In this document: positions 8,313 through 54,690 of the stretch, in pieces | Layout of the letters: each line of letters opens with the position of its first letter | Numbering within the stretch: the stretch's first letter is position 1 | Assembly: GCA_001823065.1 (NCBI GenBank) | Contig: MHTJ01000004.1 | Location: 37,839 to 101,838, forward strand | Source of the DNA: Candidatus Vogelbacteria bacterium RIFOXYD1_FULL_44_32 | GTDB taxonomy: Bacteria > Patescibacteriota > Minisyncoccia > Phycocordibacterales > XYD1-FULL-46-19 | DNA length: 64,000 nt | Reading direction: 5' to 3' | The notes under the pieces: model-generated | What the model was told of the DNA's origin: nothing | Database searches by the model: none | What the model saw: only the letters and a program-made list of their open reading frames with translations | Program-made: the position numbers and the translations under genes

Positions 8313-8439
8313 GGAAATGTTTTTCGGCGAGCACACATAATTTTCTGCTGAAAATTTGCTCTGCTCGGGCCGCCCGCCTGCCATGCGAGGCACGAGCGGG
8401 CAGGTCGCCCTTGCGCAAGGCTCGGCGAAAAACATTTCC
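8313..8439. repeat. Structured intergenic repeat, family A copy 1 (conserved core enclosed by 20-bp inverted arms)
   Basis: Arms ggaaatgtttttcggcgagc (8313-8332) and gctcggcgaaaaacatttcc (8420-8439) enclose the core cacacataattttctgctgaaaatttgctctgctcgggccg...tcgcccttgcgcaagg. The same core is found at 17191-17250. Confidence 0.7.
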
Positions 8440-8811: not shown

Positions 8812-10956
8812 ATGAAGAAGAGTCTGTCGTCGCTGGCCACCCTGGTGGCATTTGTTACAGTTTTGTCGGGTTGTGTCGGGGGGTGTTGCGTGGCTTTCGT
8901 GTCGTGGACAGACGAGTTCACAGATGATGCCGGCCGCATCCTCTTTCCAGTGCAGGTGGACGAAGTCCAGGGTCAAGGTGGCAACACCATGGCCCAGGAG
9001 TCGGCCGAAGTTCGGCTCATGAGGGTCGATTCACAAGGACGTGCCTTTGAGGTGGCGTCCAAAGTGGATGTGACCTTTGGGTCGCTCGGAGATGTTGAGG
9101 CCTACCCGATTTACTCGGGTGCCAAAGGTGCCAAAGATCTCCTGCCGTATGGCTACGTCACTCCTGGTGGCGTGGTCATGCAGAATTTTGGCATCGGCGG
9201 ACACGCCGTGCCGGCGATGTCTGGACAATTCCAGATTGTGAGCTGGGCGAGCGTTGTGCAGGAACACCCAGGTGCCTTTATCGGCGCCGCGTTGGTTTTA
9301 CTAACAGATGTTGAGTTGGTCCGCCCCGATTTTGGCGGACGGCTTTCCGTCTTGTTTACGATCAGCCAGCCTGGGGATTACTTGATTGAGGTTGATGGTT
9401 TTGCCAGCCCGATTTTGGGGGGTAGAGTCATTAGCTTTCTTACTTGCAACTTCTCTTGGACCTCGGAGGTGTTCACCCTGAACCCGCCGGGAATTGAGCC
9501 AGATCGTGATGGCGATGGTGTGCCGGACAGCGAAGATAACTGTCCAGCCACTTGGAATCCTGATCAACAAGATTCCGACCATGACGGTATTGGTGACGCG
9601 TGTGAACGTGACACCGACGGTGACGGCATTTCCGATGATGAGGACAACTGTCCTTTCATCTCCAATCCAAATCAGCTTGATACAGATGGAGATGGTGTTG
9701 GGGATGTTTGTGATAATTCTTCTGGTGAAGGTGAAGGTGAAGGTGAAGGTGAAGGTGAAGGTGAAGGTGAAGGTGAAGGTGAAGGTGAAGGTGAAGGTGA
9801 AGGTGAAGGTGAAGGTGAAGAACTCACGCTCGACTTGTCGATTAAAGAAGGTGGCAACACTTTCGAAGTCGGCGAAGATTTCACGTTGAAGCTTGATATT
9901 GACGGGGCGACAGAGCCTTACAATGTCACATTGCGTGGAACTGGGGCGGAGTTCGTCGCCTTTCGTTTTGAAGACGGTGTCATAACCGTCACGGACCGAA
10001 TCTTGGCCAACGACGTCATCGGCGAGCCAGTGCTTGTTGGTAGCAATATCGAATTGAATTACTTGCCAAAGGTGACGACTGGCGGTGAGTTTGCTTCGAT
10101 TGAGGCCCAGGTAACGGATGCCCAAAGCAACCAAGCCCAGGACTCAGTTGATGTCAAAGTCGTCGTGGCGACCGGTATCGTTCCCAATGTCATCGACCTC
10201 CCTCAACAAGAAGGAGGGGATGATGTCGAAGGAGCCGGTTTTGTAGTTGGTACAATCACGACCCGTTGCAGTGACACCATTGCCGCTGGCCGGATTATCG
10301 ACTACAACCCCAAGGGTGTTCAGCCTTTGGGCACCGCCATTAATCTGGTGGTTTCCACCGGGCCCTGTGGACCGGAGATGACCACCGTGCCCAACGTGGT
10401 TGGTGACTTACTGGTGAATGCGGATGCCGAAATCACTGGTGCCAACCTCGAGGTCGGTAATGTGACGGAAGTCTTCAGTACCGCACCAGTCGGGCAGGTG
10501 ACAATCCAAAGTCCTGTCGGTGGGACGCAAGTGCCCGTCGGTAGTGCGGTGAACCTCACTGTTTCGAAAGGTGAGGAACCGGTGCCTGGGCCATTGGCGC
10601 TAGTTGTTACTTCGGCCGACGAAGATTTTCCCAATAGTTACCAAACTAACGGGACGATGACGTTCAGGGCCAAGATCAACGGCGACGTGCCCGCTCCGTA
10701 TACCGTGCGGTTCCGTGGGTTGCAGAGTGATCAAATTACCGTCACTCTCAATGTCGATGGGTCGGTGACGTTTGTCAGCCGTTCTGGCGGGGCGACGATC
10801 ACCTACGACAGACATCCTTCCGACCCCCGGTCGGTGATGTTTTCCCAGATGATCTTGTTTTCGACGCAGGGTCAGCCAGCTGGTCTCTACTTCCAAGCCG
10901 AGGCAGGCGGGCAAACCGCTGATGTTGGAAACATCTCCGTCGTCGTGACGGATTAG
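8812..10956 (+). CDS. Surface lipoprotein with thrombospondin-type-3-like Ca-binding repeats, (Gly-Glu)16 tract and PASTA/Ig-like C-terminal domains
   Basis: Lipobox signal [21 protein letters not shown] and an AGGAGG SD. Repeated DxDxDGxxDxxDNCP motifs, a (GE)16 tract, and VPNVVGDLL...-type repeats. Confidence 0.75.
9724..9819 (+). repeat. Perfect (GGTGAA)16 hexanucleotide microsatellite inside the lipoprotein gene
   Basis: Read directly as ggtgaa x16; it encodes (GE)16 in frame. Confidence 0.95.
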
Positions 10957-14307: not shown

Positions 14308-14841
14308 ATGATAATAAAGGAAGAAGGAATAATAAAAGATGGTAAGATTATAGTCCAAATAGGTAAGGGTTTGGGTGCTAGGTCTTTGGAATTTTGCTTT
14401 ACTGATTTTTTTAGTAGTATTAGTTTCCTTAAGGAACAAGAAAAAACCCCAGTCAAATCTGACGGTCTTCGCGCTGGGAGTTGGTTTTTTAAATCAAAAA
14501 TGTATATTGTTTCTGGGCAGACACCATATAGTGATGAAGAGATTAAACTGAGAATTAAACATTTTGTTATTAAAAAGGAAAAAGAACTCACTAAAATTTC
14601 AAAAGAAGTTGAGGCCTTTGAAAATTTTGACCAAGCACGGAGTGCCAGAAGAGGAAGAATTCCAGATGATGTACGATTATTTGTATGGCAAAGGGATGAG
14701 GGTAAGTGTATAAAATGTGGTACAAAAGAAAAATTAGAATTTGATCATATAATACCGGTCGTTGCTGGGGGAGCAAATACACAAAGAAACATTCAACTTT
14801 TGTGCGAATTGTGCAATAGAACTAAAGGTAAAAATATCTAA
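14308..14841 (+). CDS. HNH endonuclease domain protein (AT-rich, probably acquired)
   Basis: C-terminal HNH motif CIKCGTKEKLEFDHIIPVVAGGANTQRNIQLLCELCN. GC content is visibly lower than in the neighbouring genes. Confidence 0.7.
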   Translation: MIIKEEGIIKDGKIIVQIGKGLGARSLEFCFTDFFSSISFLKEQEKTPVKSDGLRAGSWFFKSKMYIVSGQTPYSDEEIKLRIKHFVIKKEKELTKISKEVEAFENFDQARSARRGRIPDDVRLFVWQRDEGKCIKCGTKEKLEFDHIIPVVAGGANTQRNIQLLCELCNRTKGKNI

Positions 14842-17162: not shown

Positions 17163-17168
17163 TAAACA

Positions 17169-17275
17169 GAACGCCAGAAGTTAATTTTCATCACACACAT
17201 AATTTTCTGCTGAAAATTTGCTCTGCTCGGGCCGTCGCCCTTGCGCAAGGTTCTGAAAATTAACTTCTGGCGTTC
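17169..17275. repeat. Structured intergenic repeat, family A copy 2 (same core, different perfect 22-bp inverted arms)
   Basis: Arms gaacgccagaagttaattttca (17169-17190) and its exact reverse complement (17254-17275) enclose the family-A core. Confidence 0.7.
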
Positions 17276-17409
17276 CGTGTAGTTTTAAAACTAAAGGAGT
17301 ATCAAAACCTAAATTTGAGAAACTAGGGAGCGCGACGGCGCGAGCTCGAGGAATTTTTTAGCAAAAAAATATCCGTATTCTCAAAATTAGCGTTTTGATG
17401 TGACTCACC

Positions 17410-23819: not shown

Positions 23820-24554
23820 AATATTGGACACCGAGTGTCCAATATTTTAAACTTATGATAATGAGAAAGATAAAAATTTGTGAGGGGGAGTATTATCACA
23901 TTTACAATCGTGGAGTAGATAAAAAAGACATTTTTATTGATAAACGAGATTACGCCCGGTTCTTATTTTGTGTTTTGTTTTTCCAATCGCCACTTTCATT
24001 AGTTAATCCTCCCTCCTATATTAATTATTTTATTGGACACTCGGTGTTCAATATTTCTCAAAAAATTAAAAAACAAATAATTAGTGATAAGTATGTTGAG
24101 TTGGTGTCTTTTATATTTATGCCCAATCATTTCCATTTAATTGTTAAGGAAAAGGTGGCAGGGGGAATTTCTCAATATATGCAAAGAATTCAAAATTCTT
24201 TTACAAAATATTTTAATACAAAATATAAAAAGAATGGGCATTTATTTCAGGGGCCATATCAAATTGTTTATATTGAAGATGATGAACAGTTACTTTATTT
24301 ATCATCATATATACATCGGAATTGTCGGGTACTTAATGGTTGGAAGAATAAGGAGGAAAAGTATCCGTGGTCAAGCTACTCTGATTTTTTAGGCCCAAAT
24401 CGGTTTGGTGGTCTATTAGAACCAGAAATTATTATGTCCGAATTTAATAATGCTGGTGATTATAAAATAGAGGTTCAAAACAGTGGCGCCAAAGAGATAA
24501 TTGAAGATTTATTAATTGATAATTGATAATATTGGACACTCGGTGTCCAATATT
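23820..24554 (+). mobile_element. IS200/IS605-family (or RAYT-like) element with 27-bp palindromic termini
   Basis: aatattggacaccgagtgtccaatatt at 23820-23846 and its reverse complement at 24528-24554 flank a HuH tyrosine-transposase ORF. Confidence 0.7.
23855..24526 (+). CDS. tnpA: IS200-like HuH tyrosine transposase (TnpA / REP-associated-like)
   Basis: HIYNRG, HuH motif MPNHFHLIV and catalytic-Tyr motif YIHRN. Start taken at MIMRKIKI. Confidence 0.75.
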   Translation: MIMRKIKICEGEYYHIYNRGVDKKDIFIDKRDYARFLFCVLFFQSPLSLVNPPSYINYFIGHSVFNISQKIKKQIISDKYVELVSFIFMPNHFHLIVKEKVAGGISQYMQRIQNSFTKYFNTKYKKNGHLFQGPYQIVYIEDDEQLLYLSSYIHRNCRVLNGWKNKEEKYPWSSYSDFLGPNRFGGLLEPEIIMSEFNNAGDYKIEVQNSGAKEIIEDLLIDN

Positions 24555-24601
24555 TTGTTTTTCTAGAGAAGATGTAAAGTCTTTATGGTAGAATAGGAGG
24601 A

Positions 24602-31900: not shown

Positions 31901-32320
31901 ATGATTTTTCTTATTACTATGACGGTTATATGTTTTGGGCTGGTCGCCTACTTAGTAGGTCGTCAGCTTTTGTTGTTACGCCGAGGTGAAGTGCAATTAA
32001 ACCAAGAAGCACCCACCTTATCTTTTGCTGATTATTTAAGTCTTAGTCTTGATAAAATGGCCGGCCAACTTTCCCACTTTAGCCACGAGCTAATGCACTT
32101 GGTGTCTATTCTATCTTTACTGGGGGCAAAAAAGGTGGCGGCGGTGGTCAAGCATAACACCGGGCGGATTGAGCGAGTCTTGGGTCAGGTTTTGCGGGCG
32201 ACCCATGAGAGGCGCAAGCGGGGCCGAGGGGAGCGGGGCTCGACGTCTATGTTTCTGCGCGAGATTGAGTTGCATCAGTCGAAGGTAAAGGAAAATTTAA
32301 ATACTTATTCTAGGAATTAG
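31901..32320 (+). CDS. Hypothetical membrane protein
   Basis: N-terminal transmembrane helix followed by a basic C-terminus; no recognised motif. Confidence 0.45.
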   Translation: MIFLITMTVICFGLVAYLVGRQLLLLRRGEVQLNQEAPTLSFADYLSLSLDKMAGQLSHFSHELMHLVSILSLLGAKKVAAVVKHNTGRIERVLGQVLRATHERRKRGRGERGSTSMFLREIELHQSKVKENLNTYSRN

Positions 32321-32363
32321 AATTTGTCGATGTTTGTTAAAAAATAGGTTATAGTAGATTTTT

Positions 32364-32436
32364 GCCGGCATAGCTCAGTTGGTAGAGCGCCACTTTTGTA
32401 AAGTGGATGTCCGGGGTTCGAACCCTCGTGCCGGCT
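32364..32436 (+). tRNA. tRNA-Thr (anticodon UGU)
   Basis: Cloverleaf: acceptor GCCGGCA/TGCCGGC, D arm GCTC-AGTTGGTA-GAGC, anticodon stem CCACT/AGTGG with loop TT-TGT-AA, T arm CGGGG-TTCGAAC-CCTCG. Confidence 0.85.
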
Positions 32437-32570
32437 CAGAGAGACGACAAAGCAAGCAAACTGCTTTGCTTGTGTGAGGGTGAGAAAAGATTTTTGTTGT
32501 TTTTCCAGCCGGGAAAATCAAAAATCTGGGGTTGAGGAAAAAACTTTTGGCGAAAAGTTTTTGAGGTGAC

Positions 32571-32592
32571 CGAACCCTCGTGCCGGCTCAGA
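32571..32592 (+). repeat. Exact 22-nt direct repeat of the tRNA-Thr 3' end (att-like)
   Basis: cgaaccctcgtgccggctcaga occurs at 32419-32440 (within/after the tRNA) and again at 32571-32592. Confidence 0.8.
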
Positions 32593-32626
32593 AGGATCTT
32601 TTGGGAAGTAAGAAAAGAGAAAGGAA

Positions 32627-32827
32627 TTGATTATGACCGAGACAGAAGAAATGATTCACCAGCGTTTTAAGAAGGCACTGGAAGAACACGGTCGGCGTTT
32701 GGACGATCCCGATTATCGCCGAAGATTGGAGATCTCGGCACTCCAGACCTCTGTCGCCGTTTCAGTATCAATCCAGGCGCAAAGACAGGCGGCGGCTATG
32801 GAGCACAGAAGTGGTCGCCGATATTAG
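32627..32827 (+). CDS. Small hypothetical protein (66 aa)
   Basis: AAAGGAA SD; a terminator follows (acggcccacagttgtgggccgtttctttttt, 32838-32872). Confidence 0.45.
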   Translation: MIMTETEEMIHQRFKKALEEHGRRLDDPDYRRRLEISALQTSVAVSVSIQAQRQAAAMEHRSGRRY

Positions 32828-32894
32828 GACGAACTAAACGGCCCACAGTTGTGGGCCGTTTCTTTTTTGGGTTTTTTTCGCTATACTCACCTCT

Positions 32895-33602
32895 ATGGAA
32901 GAAACTAAACAGTTGGGACACCTACACCCTCTCACCCAAATGATGAGTGAGATGTCGGATATTTTTCGCGAAATGGGTTTTCGGGTGGCCGATGGGCCCG
33001 AGAAAGAGTCCGAATGGAATAACTTCGACGCTTTAAATATCCCGGCCAATCACCCGGCGCGAGCGATGCAAGATACCTTCTGGGTAAAGCCGCATACAGC
33101 TGGCCAGCTGCTTCGAACTCATACCACTTCAGTATCACTACGGGAATTGGCAAAAAAACAGCTGCCACTACGGGTAGTGTCGCCTGGTCGTGTTTTCCGT
33201 AATGAAGCGACTGATGCTACTCATGAGGCGCAGTTCTATCAGTTTGATGGTCTCGCTATCGACCGACCCGGGGTAATTTCGATGGCTCACCTGAAAGGGG
33301 TGTTGTCGACTTTGTATAAAAGACTTTTTGGCGAAAATATCGAGATGCGCTTCCGGGCTAGCTTCTTTCCGTTTGTGGAGCCGGGAGTAGAAGTGGATAT
33401 TAAATGGGGCGACCGCTGGCTGGAAGTGGTCGGTGCCGGACTTTTGCACCCCAATGTTTTTAAAGCAGCCGGGATAGACCCGAATGAGTGGCAGGGGCTC
33501 GCGTTTGGTGGTGGGGTGGACCGCTTGGCGATGATCAAATACGGTATTGAGGATGTCCGGCATTTTTACCAAGGGGATACGCGTTTTCTCAAACAATTTT
33601 AA
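32895..33602 (+). CDS. pheS: Phenylalanine-tRNA ligase alpha subunit (compact)
   Basis: Class II aaRS motifs FRNEATDATHEAQFYQFDG and FFPFVEPGVEVD. Start is 7 nt after TATACT. Confidence 0.9.
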   Translation: MEETKQLGHLHPLTQMMSEMSDIFREMGFRVADGPEKESEWNNFDALNIPANHPARAMQDTFWVKPHTAGQLLRTHTTSVSLRELAKKQLPLRVVSPGRVFRNEATDATHEAQFYQFDGLAIDRPGVISMAHLKGVLSTLYKRLFGENIEMRFRASFFPFVEPGVEVDIKWGDRWLEVVGAGLLHPNVFKAAGIDPNEWQGLAFGGGVDRLAMIKYGIEDVRHFYQGDTRFLKQF

Positions 33603-33604
33603 TT

Positions 33605-34870
33605 ATGTGGTTCAAATATAAAGAAATCGAGAGTCATTTTGTGACGTCCTTGCCGGGAGTAGGAGCGGTGGCCGAGGCGCTTATTAACCATGCATTTGAG
33701 GTGGAAGAAATGGTAGAAAAAGATGGTGATATGGAAATGGATATTAAAATTTTGCCTGATAGGGCTAGTGACGCTAAAAGTGTGTTAGGTGTCGCGCGAG
33801 AAGTATCGGCTGTTATGAATTTGCCGCTTAAAGATGAATATAAATTTACAACGACCAAAGAATCGGCTCGAACTACGATAGAATTTTCGGCCAAAGTCAT
33901 TTCCGATCTGGTTGGTGTCGAATTTTCAGTTGAAGATATAAAGAGTTACCTCTCTCGAGTAGGAGTACTCGTTGAAGGAGAAGAAACACTGACAGCTCAT
34001 ATCCCCGCTGAGCGACAAGATTTAAATATTAAAGAAGATTTGGCCGATGAGGTGGCTCGCCTTTATGGTTACGCTAATGTACCGGCGCGGGCACTGCTTG
34101 CGCCGGTTGTCGCCCCTGTCGACCACCCTGACTTTATCCTTTCTAACCAAATTCGTGAATTCTTCGCCCGCGGTGGCTTTACGGAAGTTTATGGCTACTC
34201 TTTTACCGCAAAAGGCGTGGTGGAAATTGAAAAACCCTTGGCTTCCGATAAGGCATATCTGCGCACTAATTTAACTGATTGGATGTCAGCTACTTTAGTT
34301 TCTAATATCAAGCACTCACTATTTCCCAAAGATGAAGTAAAACTTTTTGAGATTGGTAATGTTTTTGTTTCCGAAGACGAAGAACAAAAGCGGATTTGCG
34401 TGGCTGCTAATATTTCACTTCAGTCTGTTATTAACGAACTAAAACAAGAATTTAATATCACCGAATTACCCGAGATTAAAAAGATCGAAGGTGGAGAAGT
34501 AGTTGAACTTTTGCTTTCAAGCTTAAAAGCTAAGGACGGCGCGGCCGATCTTTCGCCGTTTATTAAATCCGATGTCAACTATAAACCAGTCTCGGTCTAC
34601 CCCCGCATTGTCCGTGATATCGCTCTTTTTGTACCAGCCGGTACTGCTAGTAGCGAAGTGGGGGAGATGATTAAACAAAACGCAGGCCCGCTCCTTGCCG
34701 AAGGTCCTATCCTTTTTGATGAATTCACGAAGCCGGGCGAAGACCGTACTTCGCTCGCATACCGCCTGGCTTTCCAGGCTTCCGATCGGACATTGGAAGA
34801 TGCTGAAGTAAATACCCTAATGGAAAAAGTTTATAAGGTGGTGAAGGAAAGAGGTTGGGAAGTCAGATAA
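33605..34870 (+). CDS. pheT: Phenylalanine-tRNA ligase beta subunit (compact, lacks N-terminal tRNA-binding domain)
   Basis: B3/4-like region and a C-terminal FDX-ACB-like domain (SLAYRLAFQASDRTLEDAEV). It immediately follows pheS. Confidence 0.8.
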   Translation: MWFKYKEIESHFVTSLPGVGAVAEALINHAFEVEEMVEKDGDMEMDIKILPDRASDAKSVLGVAREVSAVMNLPLKDEYKFTTTKESARTTIEFSAKVISDLVGVEFSVEDIKSYLSRVGVLVEGEETLTAHIPAERQDLNIKEDLADEVARLYGYANVPARALLAPVVAPVDHPDFILSNQIREFFARGGFTEVYGYSFTAKGVVEIEKPLASDKAYLRTNLTDWMSATLVSNIKHSLFPKDEVKLFEIGNVFVSEDEEQKRICVAANISLQSVINELKQEFNITELPEIKKIEGGEVVELLLSSLKAKDGAADLSPFIKSDVNYKPVSVYPRIVRDIALFVPAGTASSEVGEMIKQNAGPLLAEGPILFDEFTKPGEDRTSLAYRLAFQASDRTLEDAEVNTLMEKVYKVVKERGWEVR

Positions 34871-35576: not shown

Positions 35577-37595
35577 ATGCCATTAAAGGAAGATAAATAT
35601 AAGCTCTACTTGGCTTCTGGCATCCGCCTGTGGACGCTATTTTTCAAAGATGGTTATTCCCCTTATTTCAATAAAAAAGTTTCCCTGTTTGAACCGGCGC
35701 TCATAGACAATCAGTACACCGGTGAGCATCGCAAAATACCGATCAAAATTGCGACTAAGGACTTGGGTGAGATAAACAAATGCGATGCGGTGTTAGCCTA
35801 TATGAAAATGTACGATACCCAAGGCAATGGGCCAACGGGTACCGACAGCTCTTGGGAATGTGGTTATGCTATTGGGCAGGAAAAACCGACTATTATGCTG
35901 GTGGAAGATTTGGAACACCTCGACTATTACACATCCCAGTGGATGGTGACTTTTAGTATTGGTGCCATTTTAACTACAGATAAAGAGGTGGCGGAAAGTG
36001 CCCGGCACAGTGATAAGTTTACCCATACCGCCATTTTACTCTGCGAAAACAAAGAGCAGTTTGAAGACAAAATTATAGAGTATTTAGACAAATACTACCG
36101 CTCTATCTATGCACGTGAAGGCGAGATAAACTATTCCGTTGACCAGGAAATTAGAAAGTATGTCGACGAGAAAAATTTGCAGGAGTTTTTTGAGGAGTGC
36201 CAGAGTGGTATACCAGTTGAAGATAAACCCACCACTTGGTATTACGACAAAAAAACTAAATATAATGACCCCACCACCTATCTGGCGGTCTGCACGTCCG
36301 AGGTGGAGCGGGCCGGGCGTCTGGAAAACATAATTGAAAATAATTTTAACGACTTGCCACAGGTCCTTAAAAGTGAAATCGGACAGTTGCTGGAGCAGAT
36401 GGAAAATGACGGAGCCAGTCACGTGGCCGAGATGGCAAGCTACTGGCTTAATATTCCAGCGGCCAAGGTTAAAGACCGCCGGCAGGGCAAGAAAAAAACT
36501 CGCCCAACTATTTTTTATGAGTTATTTGATTTGGTCAGCCACCACATTGTCGCTTCGGAAAGATATTTTGAAGCAGATTTTGTTTATAAAGCCGGAGCAG
36601 TAATTGAAATATATAATTGGCTAAATACCTATGCCATAGATGATGTGTTTGACAGTTCGGCCACTAGGCAGGGTGAGTCGACACTGCATGAAAAATATGG
36701 CAGCCGGCGCAATGCTCTTCTGGTGGGAGGTATTGGCCATTGTCTTGCTCTTTATTTACTGTACGAGTTGACCAAAAAACAACCGGAAGCAGCCAAGGAC
36801 CTGCTTTCGAGCTTAAACAATGTTCAGAAACTAATGTATCTGGGGCAACCTCACGACATTGCTCTCACTTTTGACAGTCGTTGGCAATTAAAATCTTTTA
36901 TAAAAAAGAATAGTTTAGATACGGCCTTACAGCTTTATTTTAAAAGAATATACGGCATTTGCGGGGCGTTTTACGAGGAGATTGGTCGGATGGCGATGAA
37001 GGCGACCAATGTTGGTGCACAATTTTATGATCAAGAGGAAGTCGAGGAAGCCTGTGTTTCCATTGCGCGGCAATTTGGCTTAGTGCAGATGATTCGCAAC
37101 GATCTCGGCGATTTTATTACGGCGGCAGATATGCCGGGGATGAGCAAGGGGATGAAAGATACCTCTCATAACGACATCGCCGAAGGCAAGCTAACACTAC
37201 CTGTCATCTATACACTATTTAGTCCAGAGGTGTCGACGCGCGATAAAAAAATAGTTATCCGGGCACTTGGTAATCGACGACTGAAAGATTCGGCACGAGC
37301 GGAAATCAGTCGAATCATCTGGGAAAGTGGGGCGATAGAATTTTCCCTGCAGTTTATCGACTACTATGTGCGGGCGGTGCGAAGACAATATGTGCGCCAT
37401 ATTAACGAGACGCCGACCCGTTTGAAATGGATTTTGAAGCTGATGGATATTACCCCGCTCATTGATATTTCTTTTCGGCGGGTGGCTTTGGACAGAAAGT
37501 GGCGCAAACTAGAGCCCTTGCCTTTTTCGGACGACATGGTCGGTGAGTTGGATAAACTGGCCGAGAGGGGTAATTTTTTGGAATCACGGAAGTAA
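35577..37595 (+). CDS. Fusion protein: N-terminal nucleoside 2-deoxyribosyltransferase/LOG-like domain + C-terminal trans-isoprenyl-diphosphate-synthase-like domain
   Basis: N-terminus YKLYLASGI...DLGEINKCDAVLAYMKMYD...GTDSSWECGYAIGQEKPTIML matches the NDT motif DxxLGxYIPDEEDxGxxxELGYAxxxGK, including the catalytic Glu. C-terminus has an FARM-like AIDDVFD...RRN, a SARM-like VQMIRNDLGDF and GKxxxxDIAEGKLTLPVIY. Confidence 0.7.
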   Translation: MPLKEDKYKLYLASGIRLWTLFFKDGYSPYFNKKVSLFEPALIDNQYTGEHRKIPIKIATKDLGEINKCDAVLAYMKMYDTQGNGPTGTDSSWECGYAIGQEKPTIMLVEDLEHLDYYTSQWMVTFSIGAILTTDKEVAESARHSDKFTHTAILLCENKEQFEDKIIEYLDKYYRSIYAREGEINYSVDQEIRKYVDEKNLQEFFEECQSGIPVEDKPTTWYYDKKTKYNDPTTYLAVCTSEVERAGRLENIIENNFNDLPQVLKSEIGQLLEQMENDGASHVAEMASYWLNIPAAKVKDRRQGKKKTRPTIFYELFDLVSHHIVASERYFEADFVYKAGAVIEIYNWLNTYAIDDVFDSSATRQGESTLHEKYGSRRNALLVGGIGHCLALYLLYELTKKQPEAAKDLLSSLNNVQKLMYLGQPHDIALTFDSRWQLKSFIKKNSLDTALQLYFKRIYGICGAFYEEIGRMAMKATNVGAQFYDQEEVEEACVSIARQFGLVQMIRNDLGDFITAADMPGMSKGMKDTSHNDIAEGKLTLPVIYTLFSPEVSTRDKKIVIRALGNRRLKDSARAEISRIIWESGAIEFSLQFIDYYVRAVRRQYVRHINETPTRLKWILKLMDITPLIDISFRRVALDRKWRKLEPLPFSDDMVGELDKLAERGNFLESRK

Positions 37596-37653
37596 ATACC
37601 CTAATGGAAAAAATTTATATGGTGATGAAGGAAAAGGGGTACGAAGTTAGATA
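37588..37653 (+). repeat. Second, diverged copy of the pheT 3' end (direct repeat of 34805-34870, ~80% identity, ORF-preserving)
   Basis: ggaagtaaataccctaatggaaaaaatttatatggtgatgaaggaaaaggggtacgaagttagatag corresponds to gaagtaaataccctaatggaaaaagtttataaggtggtgaaggaaagaggttgggaagtcagataa. In the pheT frame it translates EVNTLMEKIYMVMKEKGYEVR*. Confidence 0.85.
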
Positions 37654-41894: not shown

Positions 41895-42007
41895 GGTTGC
41901 AAATGCTTGACCCAGCCCCTGCCCAGGCCGAGGGCGGGTGCCGAATAGGCACATCTCCCTTGTGTGTGAAGCGCGAGGCCGTATGACCTCTGGGGCTTGG
42001 GTATTAG

Positions 42008-42228
42008 GGCGCTCGCCTAGCTTCCCTTTCAAAACACATCGCCACACCTCTAGAGGTGTGGCGATTCTGCTCCACCGTGGCCGTTTGGCCTTGCCCCTGC
42101 TGGGGCAAAATACCTAAGGCCAAAACCCTGCCGGCCGACAGCTCCGCAAGGTTTTGGAAAGGGAACTAGGCTCACTAACTCGAAAAAGATAAATGGTCAG
42201 CAAAAGGAGTAAGCTCGCTGGGTTGGGG
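42008..42228. repeat. Structured intergenic repeat, family B copy 1
   Basis: Shares a ~170-nt core with 51637-51810 and 54513-54690 (cctttccaaacaca...ctgctccagcggggccgtttggcc...ggccaaaaccctgccggccg...ccgcaaggtttggaaaggg...ctcgctgggttgg). This copy has an extra ~35-nt insert before the 3' tail. Confidence 0.75.
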
Positions 42229-45430: not shown

Positions 45431-45444
45431 TTCCAACCAAGCGA

Positions 45445-45464
45445 GGAAATGTTTTTCGCCGAGC
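45445..45464. repeat. Solo copy of the family-A1 20-bp arm (ggaaatgtttttcgccgagc)
   Basis: Exact reverse complement of 8420-8439 with no partner arm or core nearby. Confidence 0.7.
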
Positions 45465-52280: not shown

Positions 52281-54512
52281 ATGCGTCTCCTTTCCCTTGA
52301 ACTATCTGGTTTCAAGTCGTTTGCTAAAAAGACGACGCTTCTTTTTGAGTCGCAGGTCACTTCGATTGTCGGCCCCAATGGTAGTGGCAAGTCCAATGTG
52401 GCCGAGGCCTTTCGTTGGGTGTTGGGCGAGCAGTCGCTAAAGTCACTGCGGGGTAAGCGGGGCGAGGATTTAATTTTTAATGGCGGTGGCGGCCACAGCC
52501 AGCAAAGCAAAGCCAGTGCCACGGTGGTTTTTGACAATCGTGACAAGCGCCTCGCTTTTGACTTTGACGAAGTAGCTATCACCCGTAGTGTCTATCGTGA
52601 TGGGACCAATGAATATAAAATAAACAATTCGGTCGTGCGTTTGAAAGATGTGCTCGAGCTGTTGTCGGGGGTGTCACTGGGGCCATCGGGACATCATATT
52701 ATTAGTCAGGGTGAAGCGGACCGAATTTTGAACGCGAGCTTGAAAGAAAGGCGCGAGATGATTGAAGAGGCGCTGGGGCTAAAGGCCTATCAGTGGAAAA
52801 TTGAAGAGAGCGAAAGAAAGTTGGCCAAAACGGAAGAAAATATCCGGCAGGTGGAGTCACTGCGGCGGGAAATTGCGCCCCATATTAAATTTCTTAAAAA
52901 ACAGGTAGAAAAAATCGAAAAGATTGATGAATTACGGCGTGATTTAAAAAAGAAATATCTCGACTATTTTATTCGCGAGGATGACTATCTCAAAAGTGAG
53001 CAAGCCGAAATCAATTCTCGACGCGCTAAACCGGAAGCGGAGCTGGCCGGGGTAATAAATAAATTGGCGCAAGTTGAAAATTTGTTAGCCTCACCCGATG
53101 AGGTGACCAAGGACAAGATGCAGGCGCTAGCTACCGCCGACCGAACTTTGCGGGAAATGCAAAGTCAGAAAGATGAATTGGCGCGCTCTTTGGGCCGGTT
53201 GGAGGGGATGATCGAAATTAGGTCTGAGGAAAAGCCTCTTACCGAGGGCGGTCGTAGTGTCCCTTTTGGAGAAATAAAAGATTTCACCGGCCGGCTGGCG
53301 GAGAGTATTGTGCGGGCCGAAGAAGCTGGTGATTTTTCAGTGCTTAAAAATATTTTAGGGCAGATTAAGGTGGAAATAAAAAGTTTTGTTGACCGGTTTC
53401 GCGAGGCACCGGCTGTGCGAGACAACCAAGTGGCTCTCTCGAGTTTAGTGCAGGAAAAAGAAGAAGCGACAAGGGAACTGGGCGAACTGGAAGCGCGTGA
53501 ACTAAATTTGCGGGAGGAAAGAAAAAATATGGCCAGTAGTTTGGAAGCGGGGCGCGAGCGTCTCCACGGGGCCGAGCGGGAACGTTATGAATTGCGGGCC
53601 CAAAAAAGTGAGTGGCAGGCAGTGTTGCACGACTTGTCGGCGCGCGAGCAAACCTTGACCCGCGAGCGGGAAAATTTTACTAAAGAAATAGCTGAAGCCC
53701 GGGTGCTGGTGGACAGCGAAGTGGCAGATTTTCGGCGGTTGGTACCGCTGGTACCGGATATGAATGAAGCGCGTGATGCTCAATATGACCGCTTACGCGA
53801 AATTGAAAAAATCAAAATTCGACTAGAGGATATGGGGGTCGAGACTGGGGATGTGCTCGAAGAATACAAAGAGGTGACCGACCGGGACCTTTTTCTAGAA
53901 AAAGAATTGGTCGATTTACATCAAAGTGCTGATTCGTTGCAGAAAATAATGGCGGAATTAAAAGAAAAACTGACGGTCGAGTTTAAAGAGGGTATCGATA
54001 AGATTAATAAAGAATTTAGTAATTATTTTACCCTCATGTTTGGTGGTGGCACCGCCGAGCTGAAAGTGGTGGCCCAGCCTAAACGTCGTTCGTTGGCGGA
54101 TGAAATACTAGAAGGGACTAATCTCGGCGAGTATGCCGAGACGGCTAAACCTGAAGAGGGTATTGATATTGGCGTATCTTTACCGCGCAAAAAAGTCAAA
54201 GGGCTGGTGATGATGTCGGGTGGGGAAAGAGCGCTGACCTCGATTGCACTCCTTTTTGCAATGTCGCAAGTTAACCCACCACCGTTTATTATTTTAGATG
54301 AAACTGATGCGGCCCTCGATGAAGCCAATTCACGCAAGTATGGCGATATGATAGAACGGCTGGCCAAAGAGTCACAACTGATTTTGATTACGCACAACCG
54401 CGAGACCATGTCGCGAGCTGGCGTTTTGTACGGGGTGACGATGGGCGCCGACGGGGTGTCAAAATTACTCTCAATCAAGTTTGATGAGGCCGCTTCAACT
54501 TTTGCAAAGTAG
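52281..54512 (+). CDS. smc: SMC-family chromosome-segregation ATPase (compact, 743 aa, no obvious hinge)
   Basis: N-terminus MRLLSLELSGFKSFAKKTTLLFE...IVGPNGSGKSNV. C-terminus LSGGERALTSIALLFA...ILDETDAALDEAN. A long coiled-coil region lies between them. Confidence 0.75.
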   Translation: MRLLSLELSGFKSFAKKTTLLFESQVTSIVGPNGSGKSNVAEAFRWVLGEQSLKSLRGKRGEDLIFNGGGGHSQQSKASATVVFDNRDKRLAFDFDEVAITRSVYRDGTNEYKINNSVVRLKDVLELLSGVSLGPSGHHIISQGEADRILNASLKERREMIEEALGLKAYQWKIEESERKLAKTEENIRQVESLRREIAPHIKFLKKQVEKIEKIDELRRDLKKKYLDYFIREDDYLKSEQAEINSRRAKPEAELAGVINKLAQVENLLASPDEVTKDKMQALATADRTLREMQSQKDELARSLGRLEGMIEIRSEEKPLTEGGRSVPFGEIKDFTGRLAESIVRAEEAGDFSVLKNILGQIKVEIKSFVDRFREAPAVRDNQVALSSLVQEKEEATRELGELEARELNLREERKNMASSLEAGRERLHGAERERYELRAQKSEWQAVLHDLSAREQTLTRERENFTKEIAEARVLVDSEVADFRRLVPLVPDMNEARDAQYDRLREIEKIKIRLEDMGVETGDVLEEYKEVTDRDLFLEKELVDLHQSADSLQKIMAELKEKLTVEFKEGIDKINKEFSNYFTLMFGGGTAELKVVAQPKRRSLADEILEGTNLGEYAETAKPEEGIDIGVSLPRKKVKGLVMMSGGERALTSIALLFAMSQVNPPPFIILDETDAALDEANSRKYGDMIERLAKESQLILITHNRETMSRAGVLYGVTMGADGVSKLLSIKFDEAASTFAK

Positions 54513-54690
54513 GGCACTCACCTCACTTCCTTTTCCAAACACATCGCCACACCTCTAGAGGTGTGGCGATTTTGCTCCAGCGGGGCCGTTTGGCCTCGTG
54601 TCTGCTGACACAACAATACCTAAGGCCAAAACCCTGCCGGCCGCCACCTCCGCAAGGTTTGGAAAAGGAAGGAGGTTCGCTGGGCTGGGG
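54513..54690. repeat. Structured intergenic repeat, family B copy 3
   Basis: Starts immediately after the smc stop. The outer stem changed compensatorily relative to copies 1 and 2 (cacttccttttccaaac / gtttggaaaaggaagg). Confidence 0.75.

Follow-up and report, generated by a model that had tools for sequence, protein, structure and literature searches.

Insertions into tRNA genes are known from prophages and genomic islands, whose attL and attR sites belong to the T-loop class and go with P4-like integrases. Remnants of integrative and conjugative elements (ICEs) that keep flanking att sites without recombination genes are known as cis-mobilizable elements (CIMEs); they are kilobases long and derive from a known ICE with a known integrase. 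Here we analyse a 130-bp spacer enclosed by a 22-nt direct repeat of the 3' end of the tRNA-Thr(UGU) gene, in a 64-kb stretch of DNA (hereafter the window) from Candidatus Vogelbacteria bacterium RIFOXYD1_FULL_44_32. This genome belongs to the Patescibacteria (candidate phyla radiation, CPR), in which genomes are tiny, tRNA genes are mostly single-copy and few mobile elements have been recognised. As in attL/attR pairs, the direct repeat begins in the T loop and extends past the 3' end of the tRNA, sequence probably borne by the element regenerates the tRNA, a fragment that is probably the native one is displaced downstream, and empty sites exist in relatives. Unlike such pairs, the structure measures 130 bp only, has no integrase, cargo or attP phage, carries an inverted copy of the att core inside, and recurs in this miniature form in many lineages. 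With CIMEs it shares att-like flanking repeats, a non-autonomous state and a presumed dependence on functions in trans, but the element is only ~150 bp long and has no parent element.

Small GIY-YIG endonuclease genes offer another comparison. T4 SegB (PMC2330249) is an example of a free-standing GIY-YIG homing endonuclease in a phage tRNA gene cluster, and in four related loci treated below (L009, L010, L049 and L076) a small GIY-YIG gene likewise lies beside a tRNA and is inherited with flanking tRNA sequence. The window element, however, has no open reading frame (ORF) and at most a possible 15-codon relic, and while classical homing leaves neither a partial target duplication nor an inverted target copy, it has both. 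MITEs (miniature transposable elements with inverted repeats) and the hairpin-forming doublets of repetitive extragenic palindromes (REPINs) are similarly short, non-coding and hairpin-rich with inverted end repeats, related modules occur elsewhere in this genome, and a Y1 transposase resembling REP-associated tyrosine transposases (RAYTs) is present. In agreement with a short, non-coding, multi-copy MITE, the window holds two tRNA-linked copies and modules at 8.3 and 17.2 kb. In contrast to MITEs and REPINs, the inverted ends are copies of the local tRNA 3' end instead of family-wide terminal inverted repeats, the flanking repeat comprises 19-85 nt of target instead of a short target-site duplication, and the copy number is low and tied to tRNA genes. 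Compared with the palindrome-associated transposable elements (PATEs) of IS200/IS605, hairpins are present, the Y1_Tnp gene (23861-24526) has its own unrelated palindromes, and a long repeat of target sequence bounds the element on both sides. Finally, sense and antisense copies could fold as a duplex target, as in the folded single-stranded sites CTX attP and integron attC, and the branch hairpin resembles the extrahelical features of attC; this likeness is purely one of form, and no consensus of a dif-like or core-site type was seen.

Entry into a tRNA gene that leaves the tRNA regenerated is classical behaviour. A size of ~150 bp, the recurrence of a mini-form at several tRNA species across a CPR class, the built-in antisense copy and the GIY-YIG link are not, and were not found described; our literature search returned no description of such elements. 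We propose, with a probability of about 0.4, that the locus represents a target-restoring insertion into the T loop, probably the remnant of an eroded GIY-YIG endonuclease cassette.

The duplicated tRNA-Thr 3' end and its conserved spacer

The initial annotation had pointed to an exact 22-nt direct repeat of the tRNA-Thr 3' end around 130 bp, and this was confirmed. The features concerned are:

32364-32437 (ARAGORN) or 32364-32436 (Rfam RF00005, 67.9 bits), + strand: intact tRNA-Thr(UGU) gene, whose 3' part from 32419 is copy 1
32419-32440, + strand: copy 1 of the direct repeat (S1), from tRNA position 56 to the discriminator, plus the trailer CAGA
32571-32592, + strand: copy 2 of the direct repeat (S2)

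The 22-mer CGAACCCTCGTGCCGGCTCAGA occurs exactly twice in the window, both times on the + strand with 0 mismatches; no third copy was found there with up to 3 mismatches allowed, and 100 dinucleotide shuffles gave a mean expectation of 0.00. The copies are spaced by 152 nt and enclose 32441-32570. Copy 1 starts after the TT of the T loop and continues through the 3' strands of T stem and acceptor stem and the discriminator into ~4 nt of trailer. The genes around it form a housekeeping setting, in the order L31, RF1, protein S2, EF-Ts, a 139-aa protein, tRNA-Thr, the repeat region, an ORF of 64/66 aa, pheS and pheT.

For comparison, a scan for PheS relatives yielded 80 loci from other Paceibacteria (cited by L numbers), of which 38 have a tRNA-Thr(UGU). 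As the initial annotation had recommended, the tRNA-Thr locus was compared across these relatives, and both occupied and empty sites were found. In the close relatives L011, L012, L015 and L016 tRNA-Thr adjoins pheS, L074 is also empty, and L007, another genome with the same RF1-S2-Tsf-hyp-tRNA synteny, has an identical tRNA followed by CAGA and no insertion; the tRNA-Thr(UGU) sequence is the same in the window, L007 and L009. Close relatives differ in a patchy way in whether they carry the element. A trailer of native appearance, with an encoded CCA, follows copy 2 in L009 and L071, where copy 1 runs into element sequence; the trailer of copy 2 in L009 (CCAAAAT) is the one seen in the empty L015 and L016. 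Since copy 2 has the native trailer and copy 1 does not, these data suggest that the element supplies copy 1 and displaces the native end. Given this native-type trailer in L009, copy 2 in the window is probably the displaced native 3' end of the tRNA-Thr gene.

We propose that the inserted unit comprises 152 bp, that is copy 1 and the 130-bp spacer, and represents a small non-coding insertion in the T loop of tRNA-Thr(UGU). It would bring its own tRNA positions 56-76, so that the gene stays intact, and the original 3' end would have been pushed 152 bp downstream to become copy 2. Recombination between the two repeat copies could remove the unit again. Of the integration into a tRNA gene that had been assumed at first, the tRNA-regenerating insertion geometry and the empty sites stand, while no evidence was found for a phage or ICE.

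The spacer is not neutral junk. Between the window and L009 it is 94.6% identical, compared with 100% for the tRNA and ~73% (DNA) for the flanking genes, and 5 of 5 stem substitutions keep pairing. Between L037 and L040, 14 of the 16 substitutions represent 7 pairs changed on both sides, with 0 pairs broken. The view that no element remains at this site is contradicted by these values, as the 130 bp are a conserved element belonging to a family at tRNA-Thr, tRNA-Leu and tRNA-Gln. Nor is the repeat absent from relatives and the spacer an ordinary terminator region, which would have refuted the initial reading: the repeat is present, and the spacer is conserved in a form other than that of an ordinary terminator. 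PheS of L009 is 88% identical to that of L010 and 84% to that of the window, yet L009 has the window-type tRNA and element, and L010 a different tRNA-Thr and the other element subtype. This incongruence between element and PheS phylogeny favours insertion. Contig L004 (k141), from another assembly of the same strain, is 100% identical over 2325 nt and starts at 32571, exactly where copy 2 begins. If a spacer-less variant coexisted, this is the point at which an assembly graph would branch, and the contig start is no more than suggestive of such a variant.

Where two small hairpins had been noticed between the repeats, three are present (32453-32472, 32488-32527 and 32539-32562). From left to right, the spacer contains:

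32441-32449, + strand: AS-a, degenerate inverted copy of the acceptor 3' strand (GAGACGACA against the expected GAGCCGGCA, 7/9)
32453-32472, + strand: hairpin hpA, stems CAAGCAA/TTGCTTG, loop ACTGCT
32476-32486, + strand: AS-b, a second degenerate inverted copy, here of the 3' strand of the T stem together with the T loop (GAGGGTGAGAA against the expected GAGGGTTCGAA, 9/11)
32488-32527, + strand: hpB, long A/T-rich hairpin with an inner stem-loop
32522-32569, + strand: what may be left of the 3' end of a GIY-YIG ORF, frame ..KSGVEEKTFGEKFLR, TGA at 32567-32569
32539-32562, + strand: hairpin hpC, stems AAAAACTTTT/AAAAGTTTTT, loop GGCG
32563-32570, + strand: right junction GAGGTGAC

AS-a by itself is not significant; what identifies it is where it lies in comparison with the clear inverted copies of L037, L052, L064, L071 and L079. 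AS-b alone reaches p of about 0.1; it is followed by the family motif AAAG, is supported by the family alignment and, in the minimum-energy structure, is base-paired with ACCCTC from copy 2. hpA divides the inverted copy at the junction of acceptor and T stem, and its position and loop recur with differing stems in L071, L079, L037 and L040. The inverted copy of the window is thus recognised only because of its position and the splitting hairpin hpA. In hpB, 3 of 3 stem substitutions relative to L009 preserve pairing. The motif GGGGTTG (32528-32534) lies inside the stretch of the possible relic. hpC is identical in L009 and has a hairpin at the equivalent position in L052 and L079, and GTGAC immediately precedes copy 2 in the window, L009, L044, L052 and L064.

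Related elements at tRNA-Thr, tRNA-Leu and tRNA-Gln genes

The layout of the window recurs at 9 of the 38 tRNA-Thr(UGU) loci (L009, which equals L006, and L010, L020, L037, L044, L052, L064, L071 and L079) and in addition in L040. In this layout an intact tRNA is followed by its own 3' end as an inverted copy, then by hairpins and conserved motifs, and finally by the 3' end as a direct copy, which begins in the T loop. Copy 2 is located 150-260 nt downstream of the tRNA in these relatives and matches the genome's own tRNA; direct and inverted copies alike follow the tRNA sequence of the respective genome. In 8 of 11 elements copy 2 begins between TT and C in the T loop; across the family the direct repeats comprise 19-85 nt of target. 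An inverted copy just after the tRNA is present at each element-bearing tRNA-Thr locus. Inverted copies of at least 9 nt were found at 9 element loci as against 1 of ~29 tRNA-Thr loci without element, where the match lies within pheS. In L064 the copy is a perfect 21-mer, and since the T loop of L064 is not palindromic it is unambiguously inverted. In L037, L040, L052, L071 and L079 a hairpin splits the inverted copy at the acceptor/T-stem junction.

The same layout occurs at the tRNA-Leu of L076 and, within the window, at its only other tRNA:

877-948, + strand: tRNA-Gln(CUG)
about 949-1122, + strand: family member of subtype B, 3' of tRNA-Gln(CUG)

This second element has an inverted copy at 977-996 (17/20), a degenerate direct copy at 1107-1122 (14/16), GGGAAAGGGGTCGGGG..CCCCGTGG at 997-1033, and GCGAAGC at 1043-1049. 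Two subtypes can be distinguished, which have motifs in common: AAAG after the inverted copy, internal GGGGTYG and GCGAAGC, and GTGAC directly before copy 2. The hpA loop ACTGCT is common to hosts whose PheS proteins are only 50% identical. Tandem or partial second units occur in L037, L040 and L044. L020, L052 and the window tRNA-Gln element are decayed, as is expected of selfish DNA. Nested insertions were found as GC-rich palindromes in L009 and L010 and as a ~100-nt module in the hpB loop of L079 relative to L071. Upstream of the window, tRNA-Thr(GGU) and tRNA-Thr(CGU) have no element. A search for orthologous tRNA-Gln loci via the neighbouring NUDIX gene showed that synteny is not conserved and found a single tRNA-Gln, distant and empty. 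Taken as a family, these are hairpin-rich elements of 130-250 bp on the 3' side of tRNA-Thr, tRNA-Gln and tRNA-Leu genes in Paceibacteria, tiny bacteria of groundwater, each carrying a sense and an antisense copy of its own tRNA 3' end.

Two further observations were made in L076. An orphan 3' fragment of a different tRNA (GGGGGTTCGAATCCCCCTCTAGCCT) is located at L076:272-350, ~50 nt downstream of tRNA-Cys, and a second subtype-B core at L076:2418-2507 has no adjacent tRNA.

GIY-YIG genes and competing explanations

In some relatives the 5' side of a tRNA is occupied by a gene. ORFs with a GIY-YIG domain (PF01541, E = 1e-12 and 2e-16) abut the 5' end of tRNA-Thr in L009, L010 and L049 and that of tRNA-Cys in L076. 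These small ORFs (~80 aa), immediately 5' of the tRNA, are:

L009:2290-2710: GIY-YIG ORF
L010:2200-2600: GIY-YIG ORF
L049:2480-2790: GIY-YIG ORF
L076:5-271: GIY-YIG ORF

Each is preceded by a relic consisting of GIY-YIG C-terminal codons and tRNA positions 1 to ~30, and GC-rich palindromes break these 5' relics; L042 and L086 have 5' tRNA relics without an ORF. With its duplicated tRNA 5' part, this anatomy is the mirror image of the 3' structure. Alleles with and without an insertion at the same site exist for the 130-bp element and, when L009, L010 and L049 are compared with the window, also for the intact 5' GIY-YIG cassettes.

A second link lies in the spacer itself. Its frame ending in the TGA of GTGAC reads ..SRENQKSGVEEKTFGEKFLR, and the C-terminus of the L009 GIY-YIG protein reads ..ARNKEKYLKSGVGKEFLKSIK. 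Spacer and L009 GIY-YIG gene agree at 24/29 positions of DNA (p about 0.005, uncorrected). The peptide test gave p = 0.005 for the window and 0.065 for both L010 and L064; a Fisher combination over 11 elements gave about 0.005, most single elements being not significant. The 3' end of the spacer may therefore contain ~15 codons of a GIY-YIG gene, a possibility inferred from these matches, and hpC looks like a GIY-YIG coding relic with a 14-nt inverted duplication. We propose that the elements originated as eroded cassettes or non-autonomous derivatives of a small tRNA-homing GIY-YIG endonuclease gene; the direction of insertion and mobility at present are, like this origin, inferred.

Several points weigh against this proposal. 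The window contains no GIY-YIG gene, no intact ORF was found in any 3'-side tRNA element, and the GIY-YIG similarity is short, of low complexity and was tested post hoc. The homing-cassette model accounts for neither the antisense copy nor the maintained hairpins, and no model so far explains why an antisense target copy is retained; in the window tRNA-Thr element the inverted copy is moreover degenerate and alone not significant. The high identity to L009 could reflect selection on an RNA instead of transfer, the start of L004 could equally be due to a single nucleotide polymorphism or a drop in coverage, and the element occurs at only 2 of 4 tRNAs in ~80 kb of this genome.

The search for a mobilising enzyme bears on all explanations. 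No integrase was found among the called genes of the window, in 8.8 kb upstream and 7.5 kb downstream (Pfam), or in the comparison loci that were inspected, and there is no ORF within the 130-bp spacer. Of recombinase-like or endonuclease genes, the vicinity contains only an HNH ORF and the RAYT-like Y1 transposase, the latter accompanied by palindromes of its own. As a potential attP, the 22-mer is absent from the viral contigs of IMG/VR; two scans of viral contigs with family motifs gave 29 and >120 matches, all by chance, with no hairpin, adjacent tRNA or repeat. A metagenome scan for a free form of the repeat gave chromosomal copies only.

It is less likely that the locus is a miniature att-flanked integrative element or an attL-attR remnant whose tyrosine-type integrase is encoded elsewhere or lost, arising from a small attP circle or by internal deletion of a larger element. 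Several features would suit such an element. The stretch from the T loop to past the tRNA 3' end is the classical sublocation of tRNA-integrating elements and is the span of the identity block, the direct repeats are long, empty sites exist in relatives, and tandem or partial second units occur in three loci. What looks like a second 3'-end-restoring insertion lies 2 kb away at the end of pheT. A duplex imitating the target could form from the sense and antisense copies, and by analogy with CTX phage and integron attC the inverted copy would perhaps be part of the attP architecture as a folded single-stranded site. However, besides the missing integrase and the chance-level viral matches, no full-length occupied site was seen among the 38 tRNA-Thr loci, and unless the mini-form is itself mobile, it is implausible that internal deletions arrived at 130-250 bp independently in >10 lineages.

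We attach little weight to the reading as a structured RNA with a function, derived either from the transcript of tRNA-Thr or from a promoter of its own. Its antisense and sense copies would close a tRNA-like stem, which might for instance signal processing, serve as a decoy or regulate the gene downstream. In favour of an RNA are the conservation of the spacer above its flanks (95% against 73%) with pairing kept by every stem substitution, the conserved hpA loop on varying stems, and the one-sided changes between window and L009, which all pass through G-U pairs on the + strand. The elements also fold much more stably than shuffled sequences (z-scores of -2.4 to -8.5), but this holds for both strands. 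The + strand folds better in 11 of 11 elements, and shuffles showed that this advantage equals the prediction from base composition; folding therefore does not discriminate between RNA and DNA. At the gathering threshold, the covariance models of Rfam 15, which include group I introns, T-box, tmRNA and ribozymes, returned tRNA only, and at E up to 10 nothing relevant was found in 32300-32900 or 850-1260. In L020, L037, L044 and L064 a good intrinsic terminator separates tRNA and element, copy 2 or the inverted copy is decayed in the window, L020, L052 and the tRNA-Gln element, and length and hairpin content are highly variable, with nested palindromic insertions in L009, L010 and L079. Terminators, decayed copies and variable length together favour an element acting at the DNA level. 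Likewise, an RNA stem need not copy the tRNA sequence, and the patchy occurrence among close relatives does not fit.

A by-product of local rearrangement appears about as improbable as an RNA. Here, MITE- or REP-like palindromes beside a tRNA and template switching at hairpins would have produced a direct-inverted-direct triplication with no dedicated targeting of tRNA genes. Sense-antisense-sense is the order of tandem inversion duplications, and it is the order of the elements. A hairpin (AATTTTCAGCAGAAAATT) of the elements in L052 and L079 recurs in the palindromic mini-elements located at 8313-8439 and 17163-17281, the difference between L079 and L071 in the hpB loop is such a module, a RAYT-like Y1 transposase with flanking palindromes is present in the window, and stem changes on both sides could be the product of palindrome correction. 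On the other hand, the same ordered architecture and junction are found in >10 lineages and at three tRNA species, with the TT/C junction in most elements and GTGAC before copy 2 in several. Module copies away from tRNAs lack the third, direct copy, and a triplication alone does not account for foreign conserved motifs lying between the copies.

That the locus is the scar of an excised or decayed prophage or ICE with nothing functional or recurrent left, as first considered because of the att-like repeat at the tRNA 3' end, is hardly credible, as excision leaves one att site instead of two and the conserved, structured spacer has homologues at other tRNAs and in other genera with no phage or integrase genes nearby.

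Some other identities were set aside. A group I intron was considered because of GGGAAAGGGGTC and of a preprint on tRNA introns in Patescibacteria (10.1101/2025.07.03.662931), but there was no Rfam hit, the sequence is too short, there is no terminal G before copy 2, and the upstream tRNA is already complete. By reasoning only, we set aside a homing guide of a CRISPR-transposon or an omega-RNA-like guide (an effector is missing, and the supposed guide would be paired by the antisense copy), a primer-binding site of retroviral type (CCA is left out of the inverted copy, and no reverse transcriptase is present), and a T-box leader, which also had no Rfam match.

Neighbouring features and meaning for Patescibacteria

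Downstream of copy 2, two features precede pheS:

32627-32827, + strand: orphan ORF, 66 aa from TTG 32627 or 64 aa from ATG 32633 (deposited)
32836-32861, + strand: intrinsic terminator after the orphan ORF, its 3' half also in L008, the closest relative

The ORF described initially as an orphan of 66 aa is indeed an orphan, although its start differs in the deposited version, and its own terminator was confirmed. The initial annotation had suggested looking for the protein in phage or plasmid contexts; among 5.8 billion proteins only itself (Candidatus Vogelbacteria bacterium RIFOXYD1_FULL_44_32) matches, and it contains no Pfam domain. ORF and terminator (32593-32861) form an indel relative to L009, where copy 2 is followed after 15 nt by the pheS promoter region; the ORF is absent from L009/L006. 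Judged by this comparison, it appears to be a neighbour of the element and no part of the recurrent structure. Its position directly after copy 2 fits a region that is a hot spot of insertion.

Other repeats of the window were recorded in passing. The last 21 codons of pheT and its stop are repeated with 86% identity over 65 nt (34805-34869 and 37589-37653), the second copy directly following the stop of a 672-aa ORF. Between the two copies lie 2.7 kb, which hold a hairpin, a membrane ORF of 120 aa and a fusion of nucleoside deoxyribosyltransferase and polyprenyl synthase but no integrase; the segment has the appearance of a second insertion, one that gives its target gene the 3' end back. The Y1 transposase (221 aa, PF01797, 23861-24526) lies between near-perfect palindromes AATATTGGACACYSRGTGTCCAATATT at 23820-23848 and 24529-24557, a third copy of AATATTGGACACYSRGTGTCCAATATT is found inside its ORF (24033-24060), and the arrangement resembles RAYT/REP systems. 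The MITE-like palindromic elements at 8313-8439 and 17163-17281 have inverted ends of 20 and 28 nt and a common core with AATTTTCTGCTGAAAATT, and the tRNA-linked elements of L052 and L079 contain this hairpin too; a solo copy of their end is located at 45433-45464. A GC-rich structured repeat of ~160 nt with inverted ends (42005-42165 and 54510-54670, 87% identical) follows gyrB and an SMC-like gene and matches no Rfam family at the gathering threshold. A free-standing HNH endonuclease ORF of 177 aa (14308-14841) directly follows gatB. In another assembly of the same scaffold, L089:6782-6881 represents 100 extra bases relative to window 9766-9778, within a 714-aa PASTA-domain ORF (8812-10956), probably a difference in repeat number between the assemblies.

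For the Patescibacteria, a wider and more tentative proposal is that the elements represent an undescribed class of mini-cassettes specific for tRNA genes, which insert into the T loop, bring a replacement 3' end and thereby let the essential single-copy tRNA survive, carry sense and antisense target copies, either as a folded mimic of the recombination target or as part of GIY-YIG-linked homing, and are possibly still active in natural populations. In practice, partial tRNA copies and hairpins of this kind break assemblies and mislead predictors of att sites and prophages. If the proposal is true, selfish insertions inside essential tRNA genes that bring a spare 3' end would constitute a new route of persistence for mobile DNA, and would explain the fast change of tRNA-Thr sequence and of pheS linkage between close relatives. 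They could also reveal the function of the small GIY-YIG proteins that are very common in Patescibacteria.

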